Of a stretch of DNA of 5,727 bases, positions 1,628 through 5,727 are shown one piece after another; positions within the stretch are counted from its first letter, which is position 1, and every line of letters starts with the position of its first letter. The translations under genes and the position numbers were made by a program. The notes beneath the pieces are model-generated. The model had not been told where the DNA came from. It was given only the letters and a program-made list of their open reading frames with translations, and did no database searches. The stretch covers positions 1 to 5,727 of IMG/VR virus record IMGVR_UViG_3300013947_000018, one strand, 5' to 3'. Source of the DNA: a virus.

Positions 1628-1706
1628 GTTTACCACCTCTTCAATTGTCAATGTTTTCGCTTTCACTGATGAAATGAGCTGTCCAGCCAAGCTCCTTGCA
1701 CTTTCT

Positions 1707-1735
1707 ATTTTAATGTTTACCTGCGTCGAAGTCAA
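1707..1735 (-). promoter_or_regulatory. Sigma70-type promoter driving the whole minus-strand gene block.
   Basis: The minus strand reads AAAAAAAACC TTGACT TCGACGCAGGTAAACAT TAAAAT AGAAAG. The -35 TTGACT is at 1735..1730, the spacer is 17 nt, and the -10 TAAAAT is at 1712..1707. An A-tract (UP-like) lies just upstream. It is the only such match I found in the non-coding region, though my scan was not exhaustive. Confidence 0.6.
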
Positions 1736-1803
1736 GGTTTTTTTTGCGTATGCGAAAAAAATTTTGAGTTCGGCACAGGTTGCCCGCCGCAGGCGAGTTT
1801 TCA

Positions 1804-1834
1804 ACACTTTCAACATTTCAACAAGTTTTCAACA
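1804..1834. repeat. 31-nt direct repeat, copy A (acactttcaacatttcaacaagttttcaaca).
   Basis: It matches 1868-1898 at 30/31 positions (c to t at position 26). The period is 64 nt. Confidence 0.9.
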
Positions 1835-1840
1835 TAAATA

Positions 1841-1860
1841 TGCACAAAGGCTTTTGTGCA
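1841..1860. other. Perfect hairpin/palindrome TGCACAAA-GGCT-TTTGTGCA, centred between the two 31-nt repeats.
   Basis: The 8-bp stem is 1841-1848 paired with 1853-1860, and the 4-nt loop is 1849-1852. All pairs are Watson-Crick. Confidence 0.8.
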
Positions 1861-1867
1861 ATTTGCT

Positions 1868-1898
1868 ACACTTTCAACATTTCAACAAGTTTTTAACA
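1868..1898. repeat. 31-nt direct repeat, copy B (acactttcaacatttcaacaagtttttaaca).
   Basis: 30/31 identity to 1804-1834. Confidence 0.9.
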
Positions 1899-2010
1899 AA
1901 ACTTTCAACATGAAAATTCTTTAGAATTTTACGCTTTAACGTTCATTTTTAGTGGTTTTCAACTTTTTCACATACACTACTACTACGACTACAACAAGTT
2001 AGAAAAATAT

Positions 2011-2057
2011 TGCGCGCGCGCGCACGTGCGCGCTTCGTGCGCGTGTGCGCGTGCGCT
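2011..2057. repeat. Alternating purine-pyrimidine (CG/TG)n tract, Z-DNA-prone, that can fold into a long hairpin.
   Basis: 2011-2033 (tgcgcgcgcgcgcacgtgcgcgc) is 23 nt of perfect R/Y alternation. 2036-2056 (cgtgcgcgtgtgcgcgtgcgc) is 21 nt of the same. Only tt separates them. 2018-2033 is a 16-nt perfect palindrome (gcgcgcacgtgcgcgc). 2014-2033 can pair with 2037-2056. The tract sits in an otherwise AT-rich spacer and is flanked on both sides by AAATAT. Confidence 0.9.
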
Positions 2058-2065
2058 CTAAATAT

Positions 2066-2103
2066 AGAAAAAAGCCCAGTACTTACTTGATAGGTACTGG
2101 GCT
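2066..2103 (-). terminator. Rho-independent terminator ending the VP1-VP2-VP4 transcript.
   Basis: The minus strand reads AGCCCAGTAC-CTATCAAGTAA-GTACTGGGCT followed by TTTTTC. The 10-bp perfect stem is 2073-2082 paired with 2094-2103, and the loop is 11 nt. The hairpin begins 12 nt after the VP4 stop codon (2118..2116). Confidence 0.8.
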
Positions 2104-2115
2104 AGGTGACACCGA

Positions 2116-3135
2116 TTAGAGAATTCCACGTTTTTTTGATGATTTTTTAATTACTCGTTCTTTAGTCTTTAGTTCGTTCCAGTAATCATGGTTTTCATAT
2201 TTTAATCGGCTTTCTTCGATTAGTTTTCTTTGCCTTTCGCGTTTGATTTCCCACAGTCTTTGTGGGTTTTCCTGTTCCATCATTTTTTCGTAGTATCTTG
2301 GTATCTGTGCTCTTTTTCCGTTGCTACACTGTATATAGCCTTTATTCCAGATTTCTTCTTTGTGTTTTTGGTAGTATTCATCTCCAAGCCCCGGTTTTAG
2401 GCTCATGCATGCAAATGGCTTTGGTTGTCCCAATTCGTAATATACATTTGCTTTTTCACCGTTAAACTCGTACATTTTTTTGGTTACATATCCCGCTACA
2501 TACCTGTATGTTTCCGGTACTGCCTGTGCAATTTGAATATTGCCCATGCCCCATAGATTAGACATCCATTTACTTGTGAAATATCCGTTGTGTCTGGTTT
2601 TGTAGAGATGTTTTAGGTCTGTTGGTTTCCAACCATATAAGATCATGTGATAGTGTGGTCTTGCTGTTTGTTCTCCGTACTCTCCTGCACAGAAATAACG
2701 TAATTTTCCCTTGCTGGCTTTCCTGAGGCGTTTTAGGAATTTTTGAATGTCTGTATACAGTAGAATTTGAACCGCGTCAGGCGCTTTGCTAGAGCCATTC
2801 CAGACGTATTGCGCTTTTCGCACTATTTCGCCTGTTTTAAGTATCATTCCCGGCACGTGTTCATCATCGTATGTTAGAGTGATAAACCATACTTCATCCG
2901 GTGTGTAGTTCCGTGCTTCTAGTTCTATTCTTGTTGTCCAATCTTCCCGCTGTCTGATTCTGCATCCGATGCATTGCCCACACGGAATTAGCATTACTCT
3001 TTGATTGTACATTACATCTTCATATTTTAGCTGTTTTCCGGATAATTCAGAAAAGCGGGCAAGTGTATACACCCGCCCGCTGATTTCTTTGTTTTCCGGG
3101 TTGTACAGCCTGATTAAAGGCTTGTAACAACTCAT
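2116..3135 (-). CDS. VP4: Replication initiation protein VP4: HUH rolling-circle endonuclease, phiX174 gpA family, 339 aa.
   Basis: Microvirus Rep motifs are present. These are PCGQCIGCR (Cys cluster), FITLTYDD (motif 1), PHYHMILYG (HUH motif, with H161 and H163 at 2655..2647) and YRYVAGYVTKK (paired catalytic tyrosines Y-x-x-x-Y, 2508..2476; compare phiX174 YVAKYVNK). The start overlaps the VP2 stop as ATGA (3135..3132). Confidence 0.95.
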   Translation of the reverse strand: MSCYKPLIRLYNPENKEISGRVYTLARFSELSGKQLKYEDVMYNQRVMLIPCGQCIGCRIRQREDWTTRIELEARNYTPDEVWFITLTYDDEHVPGMILKTGEIVRKAQYVWNGSSKAPDAVQILLYTDIQKFLKRLRKASKGKLRYFCAGEYGEQTARPHYHMILYGWKPTDLKHLYKTRHNGYFTSKWMSNLWGMGNIQIAQAVPETYRYVAGYVTKKMYEFNGEKANVYYELGQPKPFACMSLKPGLGDEYYQKHKEEIWNKGYIQCSNGKRAQIPRYYEKMMEQENPQRLWEIKRERQRKLIEESRLKYENHDYWNELKTKERVIKKSSKKRGIL

Positions 3136-4013
3136 TTTCCGTATTTCCCCCTAAGTTTGATTCCTGCTTTCATTCCTTCATTCAAGGCGAGTGATGTTGG
3201 TAAGCTTATTCCCGTTTTTCCTGATAAGTTTGCCGCTTTTTGCGTTGTCTCCATGCCTTTTTTGATTCCACCCTTTACGGCTCCACCGATGTCTTTGCCG
3301 ATTTCGCTTAGTGCTTCGGATAGTCCTTTTGCTGACATGTGTGTTTCACTTTGCATTTTATTCCAGCTTTGTGCCGCGTTGTACCAGTCTGATTCGCTCC
3401 AACTTTGTGCGCTGTATGAATTTGGAACAAATCCGCTTGCTCTACTTACTCCTAGTGCACTACTCGATGTTAGCCCCATACTTGCACCGCTGATTGTGCC
3501 GGCGCTCCCGCCCGGTGTGCTTGCTCCGCCGTTTGCGAATGCTAGAATTGGATTAAGTCCGGCCGCTTTCATGTCTTCTACGGCTCTTTGATAGCTCGTG
3601 TTTGACATTTTTTCCTGCCATTCTCGATTTGCTAGCGCTTCCGCACTGTTGTAGTTCATTGCCACACTATTTTCGATGTGATTATATATGCCTTGCATGA
3701 GTGCTCCAAGCGTATTGTATCCCATTTGCATTAGTGTTGCTCTCATGTTGTTTTTTACTTGGTTTTGTCCTTCCGTGTTTTGGTAATTGTACGCATTGTT
3801 TAGCCATTCTTCGATTTGTTTATCGTTTGTTCCGCTTGTGCTCCCGCTTCTGCTTGATCCACCGCCCTGCTGTGTACTTCCACCTGAGCTTTGCGAACTT
3901 CCTTCTTGTCCCCAGTTGCCGAACGCTTGCCCAAGGCTTCCGATTGCACTTCCTACGGTTCCTACGGTGCTTGCGATTGCTCCAATTGTCGCTAGCGTTT
4001 CTGTGATTGCCAT
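3132..4013 (-). CDS. VP2: Minor capsid / DNA pilot protein VP2, 293 aa.
   Basis: The conserved core NREWQEKMSNTSYQRAVEDMKAAGLNPILAF is the hallmark microvirus VP2 block (T-x-Y-Q-R ... D-M-K-x-A-G-L-N-P). The N-terminus is hydrophobic and glycine-striped, followed by a Gly/Ser/Gln low-complexity linker. The gene lies directly after VP1. Confidence 0.9.
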   Translation of the reverse strand: MAITETLATIGAIASTVGTVGSAIGSLGQAFGNWGQEGSSQSSGGSTQQGGGSSRSGSTSGTNDKQIEEWLNNAYNYQNTEGQNQVKNNMRATLMQMGYNTLGALMQGIYNHIENSVAMNYNSAEALANREWQEKMSNTSYQRAVEDMKAAGLNPILAFANGGASTPGGSAGTISGASMGLTSSSALGVSRASGFVPNSYSAQSWSESDWYNAAQSWNKMQSETHMSAKGLSEALSEIGKDIGGAVKGGIKKGMETTQKAANLSGKTGISLPTSLALNEGMKAGIKLRGKYGK

Positions 4014-4051: not shown

Positions 4052-5719
4052 TTAGATTTTGTCGAGACCCGGCACGCTGTAAAGTGGCATTACTCGCGTT
4101 GTTTTGTTGCTGATTTGGATCCCGCCAAAGAATTGCGGTTCATCCTGTACGATTAGCGTTCTTGCAATTTCGGTTTTGCCTTCGCTCATCCATTCCTGTG
4201 ACAGTGTCGGCACGGTCGAATAGTTGTCTCCATAGTGCCAGAAGTCTAGTGTCCCTTCTGCATTGCTTCGCATTTTTCCGCTGATTCGGTTCGGCTTCAT
4301 GCGGTAATCTGCCCATGCTTCTTGATAACCAAATGTTTCCTCGTCAGTCGTATTACCTGTGAGCATGATCTCTTTCTTCTTAACAGGCTGTTCGCCCAGA
4401 TTAGCAAACTGTGGCACATAGTAGTCCAGTCTGTCTCTACGGCTCCACATGCGTTCCAGTCCCTGCTGATAGCTCCGATTATGACGTACACACATTACGC
4501 CGATGATCCATCCATGTTCTTCGAAGCTCTTCGTGAAACTGCTTTCGTTGATGGGTGTTACTGACATTGCACCAGTTTCGCCAATAGGTGTATTGGTTTC
4601 TGTGTTCGCCGCACTAGTCTGTACAATCTGATTCATATTTACATGGTAGCGACCGCCTCCCAGATATTCCGGAATCTGTACAGTTTTATCGCTGATTTCG
4701 GTACCCCAGATTGCCCGAATTTGTTCACGGTACCGACTGCCACCGCGTGCTAGTGCTTCATAGTAGTGCTGTACTGCGATTGCCTGCCGTAGCTCATTGA
4801 TTGTCACCGCGTTTACACTGCTGAGGTCTGTTGCTAGATGTCCACTGATAGCGGTTCCTGCTTTGTTTAGATAATTGACTCGATTCCATCCGTCCAAACT
4901 ATTTACATACCATGTCTGAAGTGTTCCATCACCGCTTAAATTAGGTTTATTTGCGCCGATCCAATATTGGTTATTTTCAAGTGAGCCGTCTTCATTCTCA
5001 TAGATTACGTTTGCGTTTCCCGTCATTGGGATATTAACCTCCGGTCCTCGCTGAGGATACGGCAGACAGCTCGTGAAATAGTCGTGGAATTTGTTGACAG
5101 GCAGACAGCGACCGCCGGTGATTGCGTTCGTTAGAATGTCGTCCATGGATGAGTATTTGCTGTCTGTGTAGTCTACATTTGTGTCGCTTTTAATCCAGGT
5201 TGCTTCATTTTCTACGTTCTGATCTCTGAAAAATTCATTCCAGATCATAACGTATGCTCTGACTGGCAGCGCGTTTACTTCAAAAGTACTGGTGCTGTTT
5301 TTTTCGCCTAGGATGTGCGTCGGTACGCCCATGTAGTCCAATATGCTTCCCGTTCTCGGGTTATCTTCATCGTCGACGGGTTCTGCATAAACGGCATTAG
5401 GGGCGATTTTTGTAGGCTGTCGGATTGTGATTGTTGGTACTTTATATTCTCTTTCTGGCATCCACGGTGTTCCTTCTACTTCTCCCATGAACTGCTTCCA
5501 GTGTTCCCACAAGATGCGGTTAGGCGCATAGAAGTAATAGATGTCAATAAAACTGTCATCCATTACCGGGTATTTCGGTGTAGTCATTCGGATGATCGCG
5601 CTTGTGTTTACTCGGAATGTGTCATTGGGAAGTACTTCATCAACGTAGAACGGAATCAGTTCGCCGGAGTCGAATGTGGTTAAAATGGTCTGGTCTCGCT
5701 TGAATGTGCTACGGGACAT
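4052..5719 (-). CDS. VP1: Major capsid protein VP1 (Microviridae F-protein family). 555 aa in the window, about 571 aa if started at the wrap-around ATG (window position 118).
   Basis: The N-terminal block RSTFKRDQ..TTFDSGELIPFYVDEVLPNDTF...MTTPKYPVMDDSFIDIYYFYAPNRILWEHW matches the canonical microvirus capsid signature (RS-F ... G-x-L-I-P ... E-V-L-P-G-D-T ... F-F-V-P-x-R-x-x-W). The size is typical of gokushovirus VP1. The reading frame stays open to the window end (5727) and continues at 79-118. Confidence 0.95.
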   Translation of the reverse strand: MSRSTFKRDQTILTTFDSGELIPFYVDEVLPNDTFRVNTSAIIRMTTPKYPVMDDSFIDIYYFYAPNRILWEHWKQFMGEVEGTPWMPEREYKVPTITIRQPTKIAPNAVYAEPVDDEDNPRTGSILDYMGVPTHILGEKNSTSTFEVNALPVRAYVMIWNEFFRDQNVENEATWIKSDTNVDYTDSKYSSMDDILTNAITGGRCLPVNKFHDYFTSCLPYPQRGPEVNIPMTGNANVIYENEDGSLENNQYWIGANKPNLSGDGTLQTWYVNSLDGWNRVNYLNKAGTAISGHLATDLSSVNAVTINELRQAIAVQHYYEALARGGSRYREQIRAIWGTEISDKTVQIPEYLGGGRYHVNMNQIVQTSAANTETNTPIGETGAMSVTPINESSFTKSFEEHGWIIGVMCVRHNRSYQQGLERMWSRRDRLDYYVPQFANLGEQPVKKKEIMLTGNTTDEETFGYQEAWADYRMKPNRISGKMRSNAEGTLDFWHYGDNYSTVPTLSQEWMSEGKTEIARTLIVQDEPQFFGGIQISNKTTRVMPLYSVPGLDKI

Positions 5720-5727
5720 GTGTTGCT
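5650..5727. repeat. Terminal redundancy, copy 2 (identical to 1-78). The unit genome length is 5,649 nt.
   Basis: Exact 78/78 identity with the window start. Confidence 0.95.

Follow-up and report, generated by a model that had tools for sequence, protein, structure and literature searches.

What kind of signal is formed by the short direct repeats in the non-coding region of a gut gokushovirus genome, and which protein would read them? Rolling-circle replication that is driven by Rep and starts at a short origin has its textbook example in the Microviridae, which are among the most abundant gut phages and whose gut clades are uncultured. The window, that is, the whole 5,727-nt stretch of DNA analysed here, is a circular gokushovirus genome of 5649 nt unit length, cut inside VP1 and carrying a 78-nt terminal direct repeat (1-78 = 5650-5727). 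We report that the repeats are the putative box clusters of a 215-nt module (2011->1797, minus strand) and no stand-alone iteron array, and that the module is probably an oriC-like element bound by host DnaA.

The repeat units and their genome setting

Every gene of the window lies on the minus strand, and the gene content recognized with Pfam and PHROGs consists only of VP1, VP2, VP3, VP4, VP5, an M15 peptidase and small ORFs (Table 1). VP4 is by these matches predicted to be a bona fide Rep. Neither dnaA nor dnaN is encoded in the 5.65-kb genome, and the Pfam and PHROG searches found no iteron-binding initiator of the RepA/Pi/TrfA type in it. The nearest matches in the database are gokushoviruses from the gut of pigs and humans, with 74-80% nucleotide identity over parts of the genome, and three GenBank relatives have the same repeats in the same VP4-to-peptidase spacer.

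The initial annotation had counted eight exact copies of a 7-mer and one degenerate copy upstream of a promoter. The array is real, but exact TTCAACA occurs seven times, one fewer than proposed (+ strand, at 1800, 1809, 1817, 1828, 1873, 1881 and 1904). Chance would give 1.23 copies in the whole window and none of 200 shuffles reached seven, in keeping with the claim that composition does not account for the array. The 6-mer TTCAAC occurs eight times within 1800-1963, on the + strand only; in terms of the coding (minus) strand the unit is an 8-mer, TGTTGAAA. The genome has nine matches to TGT[T/G][G/A]AAA (TGTKRAAA), which all fall within 1799-1972 on the minus strand, and none outside this stretch on either strand; 1000 dinucleotide shuffles gave a mean total of 0.91 and a largest cluster of two within 180 nt. 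Start-to-start spacings are 12, 11, 8 and 11, 8, 9 in the window, and 8, 9, 11 or 12 across relatives. The units are thus as closely set as had been noticed, but they span 8-12 nt instead of 8-11 nt and follow no strict helical repeat, since a spacing of 10 was never seen.

The promoter, too, is present as described: a sigma-70-like TTGACT-17-TAAAAT site lies 63 nt downstream of the last unit of the array, and relatives have a near-consensus TTGACA-17-TATAAT at this position as well as strong ribosome-binding sites. A GC-rich segment between module and promoter (ACGCGCACAGCGC ... GCCGAGCTCCGC ... GGCGCTAAAGCGC) is conserved in many relatives (e.g. L005, L010 and L107) and much reduced in the window (1770-1797); an Rfam search of the window region, this segment included, matched no RNA element.

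Table 1. Features of the window; descending coordinates follow the minus strand, and functional names of module parts are putative.
Feature	Position	Strand	Remarks
VP1	4052-5719	minus	
VP2	3132-4013	minus	
VP4/Rep	2116-3135	minus	Pfam REP_ORF2-G2P, PHROG 942
Non-coding region	1628-2115		490 nt
Hairpin with conserved loop TATCAAGTA	2073-2103	minus	just after the VP4 stop
GC-rich (GCGCAC)n palindrome	2011-2057	minus	alternating purine-pyrimidine; flanks the module as a neighbour
AT-rich tract AATATTTTTCTAA	2011->1999	minus	12/13 A+T; candidate DNA-unwinding element beyond the trios
AACTTGTTG	2000->1992	minus	phage-specific conserved motif adjoining the trios
DnaA-trios TAG TCG TAG TAG TAG	1991->1977	minus	3'-GAT-5' type
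Spacer TGTA	1976->1973	minus	4 nt, trios to proximal box
Proximal box 1 TGTGAAAAA	1972->1964	minus	fits classical TGTGNAWAA
Proximal box 2 (A)GTTGAAAA	1964->1956	minus	
Distal cluster D1: TGTTGAAAG, TGTTAAAAA, TGTTGAAA, TGTTGAAAG	1910->1871	minus	
Hairpin TGCACAAA-AGCC-TTTGTGCA	1860->1841	minus	perfect, 8 bp; between D1 and D2
Distal cluster D2: TGTTGAAAA, TGTTGAAA, TGTTGAAAG, TGTTGAAAA	1834->1798	minus	
Degenerate copy TTTAACA	1892-1898	+	
Degenerate copy TTTTTCACA	1964-1972	+	
Promoter-like TTGACT-17-TAAAAT	1735->1707	minus	sigma-70-like; would serve peptidase/VP5/VP3/VP1 genes; neighbour of the module, not part of it
M15 peptidase/endolysin	1238-1627	minus	
Small ORFs, then VP5 and VP3 scaffold	533-775 (VP5)	minus	

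A trio-plus-box module and its counterparts in bacterial origins

The array as reported earlier is the box part of a larger unit that reaches about 45 nt past its coordinates and reads, in order, AT-rich tract, TAG DnaA-trios, 4-nt spacer, a tandem pair of boxes and, more distally, two clusters with four boxes each. These elements recur in relatives. The 25 nt at the position of the AT-rich tract average 75% A+T compared with 54% for the genomes (154 relatives), 149 of 150 relatives have an uninterrupted run of three or four TAG, 127 of 150 have a spacer of exactly 4 nt, and the clade consensus of the tandem proximal boxes is GTGGAAAAGTTGAAAA. Of 66 genomes that had been chosen independently of the motif AACTTGTTGTAG, 57 contain it. 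A hairpin is found between the distal clusters of relatives as well, and the (GCGCAC)n palindrome, which would form a strong hairpin as single-stranded DNA, flanks the module in most relatives though not in all.

This layout is that of the basal unwinding system (BUS) of bacterial chromosome origins, which comprises at least three DnaA-trios (3'-NAN-5', commonly 3'-GAT-5') and, no more than 16 bp from them and across a gap of about 4 bp, a DnaA-box, usually as a tandem pair (PMC8287927; for the consensus elements see also PMC10721633). The origin of Bacillus subtilis requires in addition a distal group of boxes that raises the local concentration of DnaA (PMC6669920). In the window, three consecutive trios (TAG TAG TAG, 1985->1977) and a further TAG (1991->1989) are followed by the TGTA spacer and directly by TGTGAAAAA; this box and (A)GTTGAAAA form a tandem pair that points at the trios with the polarity found in host dnaA-dnaN origins, and the AT-rich candidate unwinding element lies on the far side of the trios (2011->1999). 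In order and polarity the module resembles the B. subtilis BUS (incC: DnaA-boxes 6/7, DnaA-trios, AT-rich element and distal boxes 1-3), and the two share TAG (3'-GAT-5') trios, a spacer of about 4 bp, tandem boxes and distal clusters 45-130 bp away. The module differs from it in residing in a 5.65-kb ssDNA phage, in its box variant TGTTGAAA, in having almost all boxes in one direction, in the AACTTGTTG motif that adjoins the trios and in being inverted or relocated in some genomes. Nor does it have the chromosomal position beside dnaA and dnaN; since the genome encodes only phage genes, the module would be a copy or mimic and no chromosomal oriC. The initial annotation had taken the units for clustered protein-binding sites in an origin-like region whose architecture departs from the single 30-nt origin of the phiX type, and each of these points holds.

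The "iterons" look like putative DnaA boxes of the variant TGT[T/G]GAAA(A), that is, TTTTC[A/C]ACA. The commonest 9-mers of the arrays are TGTTGAAAA (439), TGTTGAAAG (298) and TGTGGAAAA (139). The putative box TGTTGAAAA differs from the canonical box TGTGGATAA at two positions, and we know of no experiment in which any DnaA was shown bound to TGTTGAAAA. The canonical TGTGGATAA itself occurs in 26 related arrays, at the place homologous to the second unit of D1, which is TGTTAAAAA in the window and TGTTGAAAA in others, and 174 phage units in all fit the classical TGTGNAWAA. The putative phage boxes show in this way a natural substitution series that reaches the canonical DnaA box.

The putative phage boxes match the repeat that fills dnaA-dnaN origins of Oscillospiraceae and Ruminococcus, groups that may include the host of this phage. 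A bacterial scan with one genome per species, in which three units 8-12 nt apart were sought, gave at least 120 loci. Many among the matches listed were perfect tandem or coding repeats, and none of the bacterial matches listed encoded VP1, VP4 or the peptidase, the marks of a prophage copy. Among the matches listed, several MAG loci have TGTTGAAAA and TGTGGAAAA irregularly arrayed over both strands, and in at least four gut Oscillospiraceae, Ruminococcus or Clostridiales MAGs (L190, L239, L207 and L212) the array fills the dnaA-dnaN gap, which is the origin site in Firmicutes. The identity of both genes in these four was confirmed by Pfam (Bac_DnaA and Bac_DnaA_C with E <= 1e-65; three beta-clamp domains). 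Their intergenic regions hold 19, 22, 29 and 4 boxes compared with 1-4 in the rest of each locus, with orientations of 14:5, 18:4, 25:4 and 3:1, and the boxes are the commonest 8-mers there. The MAG origins were found through the motif itself, and the independent evidence in them is their location, the trios and the mixed orientation of the boxes.

On the dnaN side, the MAG origins begin with an AT-rich stretch, (TAG)3-5, GGGG or GGTA and the tandem pair TGTTGAAAC-TGTTGAAAAC; for the phages the consensus reads AT-rich-AACTTGTTG-TAG-NNG-TAGTAGTAG-RGGN-GTGGAAAA-GTTGAAAA. Common to both are the boxes TGTTGAAAA and TGTGGAAAA, the (TAG)n-GGGG-box-box start and the 8-12 bp spacing. The MAG origins are larger (19-29 boxes in 740-1290 bp), have about 20% of their boxes reversed and lack AACTTGTTG, which is absent from host dnaA-dnaN origins and flips along with the phage module.

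The DnaA proteins of the four MAGs are changed, relative to E. coli and B. subtilis, at the equivalents of E. coli P423 (V/N), T435 (S) and H439 (Y), which we take to be base-contacting residues in the E. coli domain IV-DNA structure. DnaA of L190, L239 and L212 reads GGRDHSTIVY where E. coli and B. subtilis have GGRDHTTV(L/I)H, with V or N for the Pro of SLPxIG. If these contacts hold, the changes would fit a shifted box preference for the divergent box TTTTCAACA. The TAG-trio layout with tandem TGTTGAAA was also observed in a Mesoaciditoga MAG (L281) and an Anaerolineae MAG (L182), with no dnaA in the 8-kb locus of either; this may reflect a box variant that extends beyond Oscillospirales, or else wrong binning of the two contigs. 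Clostridiales hosts have been predicted for gut gokushoviruses from CRISPR spacers (PMC10159846), and a Clostridiales host for the present phage would fit those predictions, the promoters and ribosome-binding sites of its relatives and its M15 endolysin.

Conservation, orientation and locus of the module

An exact 18-mer of the array (ACTTGTTGAAATGTTGAA) matched 65 viral contigs, 61 of them of microvirus size with 2-11 copies of TGTTGAA around the match (mostly 5-11); the four large contigs were rejected as carriers, their matches being chance ones inside genes. With a second scan, anchored outside the array on CTTGTTGTAGNNGTAGTAGTAG, the set grew to 155 loci, and every microvirus in it has 2-12 TGTTGAA just downstream of the anchor. 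About 150 related gokushovirus genomes have the module, with 35-83% identity to the window in VP4 and 37-69% in VP1. This constancy points to a module under strong purifying selection.

The conservation also bears on whether the array has a function at all. A 49-nt direct repeat common to both distal clusters (1798-1846 and 1862-1910, 84% identity) and two ORFs that cross the array (99 aa on the + strand and 192 aa on the minus strand) would suit repeats that have no function and stem from recent slippage or duplication, or else ones that code for a repetitive peptide. We regard this explanation as having a negligible chance of being correct. Search of related microviruses for the 7-mer, as the initial annotation had proposed, found the array kept in about 150 genomes, with VP4 identity as low as 35%, where it might have been absent from close relatives, and because of this conservation functionless slippage, the alternative offered there, is excluded. 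Coding repeats were rejected as well: the ORFs have no Pfam or PHROG match, and spacings of 8, 9, 11 and 12 nt break the reading frame. The arrays themselves appear to turn over through duplication, with box number staying high. Additional tandem copies of a cluster plus flanking sequence were observed in two relatives (L049 and L140).

The base composition of the unit is similarly constrained. In 154 unique arrays (51 kb), the variable base of TGTNGAA is T in 1058 units, G in 157, A in 3 and C in none, compared with T 21, G 54, A 44 and C 31 in the remaining 803 kb of the same 154 genomes. Within the phage arrays 493 units point one way and 3 the other, a stricter orientation than in host origins. 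On the coding strand outside the module, TGTTGAA was seen 21 times in 803 kb where about 49 would be expected for a random 7-mer; stray boxes may be avoided.

These counts address another host protein as ligand, either Spo0A, whose 0A box TGTCGAA is known from phage phi29, or a response regulator of the OmpR type, which binds direct repeats. Such a ligand would be favoured by the single mismatch between TGTTGAA and the 0A box, by Clostridia being the likely hosts and by the 8-12 bp distance of the direct repeats, which suits response regulators. However, the C of the 0A box is found in none of the 1218 TGTNGAA units of the 154 arrays and in none of the four MAG origins, and 0A boxes were rejected on these grounds; moreover, the layout of trios, spacer and tandem boxes is specific to DnaA. 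Repeats of the Bacillus PhoP type or of other response regulators were likewise set aside, as the main unit TGTTGAA does not match the PhoP repeat TGT(T/A/G)AA. Binding by a regulator of either kind thus seems very improbable.

The module is a feature of a clade and not of the family. The classical gokushoviruses phiMH2K, Chp2 and SpV4 have neither trios nor box arrays, so the family can dispense with the module. A scan for the canonical TAGTAGTAG-N3-6-TGTGGATAA module found no microvirus-sized genome with arrays. Canonical trio-plus-box modules were observed in several large IMG/VR contigs (L286/L295/L306, L294, L299, L304, L305 and L310), in which an AT-rich stretch, TAGTAGTAG, GGGG and one or two TGTGGATAA are followed by more boxes, and dnaA and dnaN are absent from the fetched locus. 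These may be oriC-like unwinding modules of other phages or mobile elements, or included host DNA.

Among the related genomes the module occupies three arrangements. In 120, whose VP4 has 46-83% identity to that of the window, it lies just after VP4 and runs in the sense of the genes; in 3 close relatives (VP4 about 80%) it is inverted in place between the same GC-rich flanking elements; and in 27 distant genomes (VP4 35-41%) it is inverted and lies just upstream of VP4. GC-rich tracts were noted on either side of the module in the three in-place inversions. In the 30 of 150 genomes with an inverted module the internal anatomy is unchanged and the relation to the promoter is lost. The module retains about 70% nucleotide identity between the window and the distant L118, though their VP4 proteins are only 37% identical in amino acids. 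Comparison of these arrangements shows a module that apparently works independently of orientation and position. As either orientation and two loci work, it would act on duplex DNA and would be no packaged-strand or RNA signal, and since it flips and relocates it has no fixed polarity to a Rep nick and no tie to the promoter.

It is on this point that the repeats depart from Rep iterons, which VP4, as an HUH rolling-circle initiator, would bind cooperatively in the manner of pMV158 RepB or of geminivirus/CRESS Rep. In the pMV158 and geminivirus/CRESS systems an HUH origin as a rule has direct repeats nearby, and the array shares with the pMV158 bind locus and with geminivirus/CRESS iterons that it consists of direct repeats in non-coding DNA beside the gene of an HUH Rep, here a VP4 that is itself predicted to be a bona fide Rep. 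Unlike rolling-circle iterons, the repeats match host DnaA boxes, some units being the canonical box, and they do not co-vary with their own Rep, since the 8-mer stays constant while VP4 ranges from 83% down to 35% identity. Nor do they keep a fixed position and polarity to the nick: 30 of 150 modules are flipped with respect to the viral strand, which is the one Rep has to nick, and 27 of these 30 sit at another locus. The same unit and the same trio-box layout occur, moreover, in bacterial dnaA-dnaN origins without VP4. VP4 is therefore an unlikely ligand, contrary to what had first been suggested, and there is very little probability that the array consists of Rep iterons. As for the other suggestion made at the outset, a host factor that controls the adjacent promoter, a host factor is indeed likely and promoter control is not, 30 of 150 modules being inverted in place or upstream of VP4.

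Candidate roles of the module and neighbouring origin signals

We infer that DnaA binding and unwinding take place at the module and that the opened duplex serves a step of the phage cycle. The incoming single strand would first be converted to the double-stranded replicative form, whose proximal and distal boxes host DnaA-ATP would then fill, the distal boxes raising the local concentration of DnaA. A DnaA filament would grow onto the TAG trio strand and melt the AT-rich tract, and the opened tract could be the entry for host helicase loading and priming, and possibly for the viral Rep machinery, so that the replicative form is replicated. For characterised microviruses, no need for DnaA is known.

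A host DnaA-binding module could also act without firing. Copies of the replicative form might titrate DnaA from the host origin, or DnaA occupancy might couple phage gene expression to the replication state of the host. Box clusters with a titrating or regulatory role are known from bacteria (datA and the Bacillus DnaA-box clusters), and the phage array stands 63 nt upstream of a promoter in the most frequent arrangement of the module. A pure decoy, however, needs no trios, no fixed 4-nt spacer and no AT-rich tract, all of which are conserved, and the promoter relation is lost in 30 of 150 genomes. On balance we hold a decoy or sensor to be unlikely. If the module binds DnaA, the chance that it fires as an origin, as opposed to titrating or regulating, seems to us somewhat better than even. 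It is a more tentative proposal, and one that we would not call likely, that this gut gokushovirus clade has acquired a working cellular-type origin, at which host DnaA opens the replicative form so that it is replicated like a minichromosome, Rep-driven rolling-circle replication being supplemented or partly replaced.

Host DnaA is recruited by known mobile replicons. The origins of pSC101, F, RK2, R6K and P1 (oriR) recruit it through boxes beside an AT-rich region, and the phage module would share with these plasmid and plasmid-prophage origins the recruitment of host DnaA by a mobile replicon. They need a plasmid-encoded iteron-binding Rep, and no trios have been described in them, whereas the module looks self-complete and comes without such a Rep. 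DnaA boxes in origins of this kind and the unwinding system of chromosomes are thus already known. Searches of the literature on Microviridae and gokushoviruses together with iterons, DnaA, DnaA boxes or DnaA-trios returned no relevant report, and searches for the 9-mers themselves returned primers only; a complete trio-plus-box module in an ssDNA microvirus is, in the searchable literature, unreported.

A conserved and self-contained module built from DnaA boxes together with DnaA-trios would mean that these phages plug into the initiation system of their hosts. A working origin could, in addition, let them persist in Clostridia like plasmids, with no need to integrate. In Oscillospirales, TTTTCAACA would come to light as a divergent DnaA box, and the module would provide a sequence-based host marker; the box variant indicates Oscillospiraceae and Ruminococcaceae, which gives a handle on host range. 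With about 215 bp it may represent a natural minimal origin for bacteria without genetic tools. It further suggests that mobile elements are able to capture the chromosomal unwinding module, and similar canonical modules are found in larger viral contigs.

Within the Microviridae, a parallel is offered by phiX174 and G4, with the 30-nt gene A origin, a primosome assembly site and a DnaA-box hairpin, called the A site, that serves the ABC primosome and shows DnaA to be able to start priming on single-stranded templates. The present phage would resemble them as a microvirus that relies on host initiation and priming proteins. The module differs from their signals in that it is not a single 30-nt origin, in that its boxes are direct repeats without a hairpin stem and in that its orientation independence suggests action on duplex DNA.

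A strand-specific origin signal may lie elsewhere in the non-coding region. The motif AACTTGTTG was considered as a Rep nick site, like the phiX174 core CAACTTG↓A, and was rejected, as in 30 genomes it flips along with the module, which would put it on the wrong strand. A better candidate, whether for Rep or for complementary-strand synthesis, is the hairpin just after the VP4 stop, which keeps its coding-strand sense in all three arrangements of the module. Its stems vary among genomes and remain complementary (AGCCCAG/CTGGGCT, AGGCCAG/CTGGCCT and GGGCCTAATCC/GGATTAGGCCC), and the distant clade has ATAGACAAG as its loop. For the loop TATCAAGTA the complement is ACTTGATA, which presumably equals 8 nt of the phiX174 origin core. 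In SpV4 (L316), the coding strand carries AACTTGATA at 1640-1648, which we take to match the phiX174 origin core and which is possibly the nick site of that gokushovirus.
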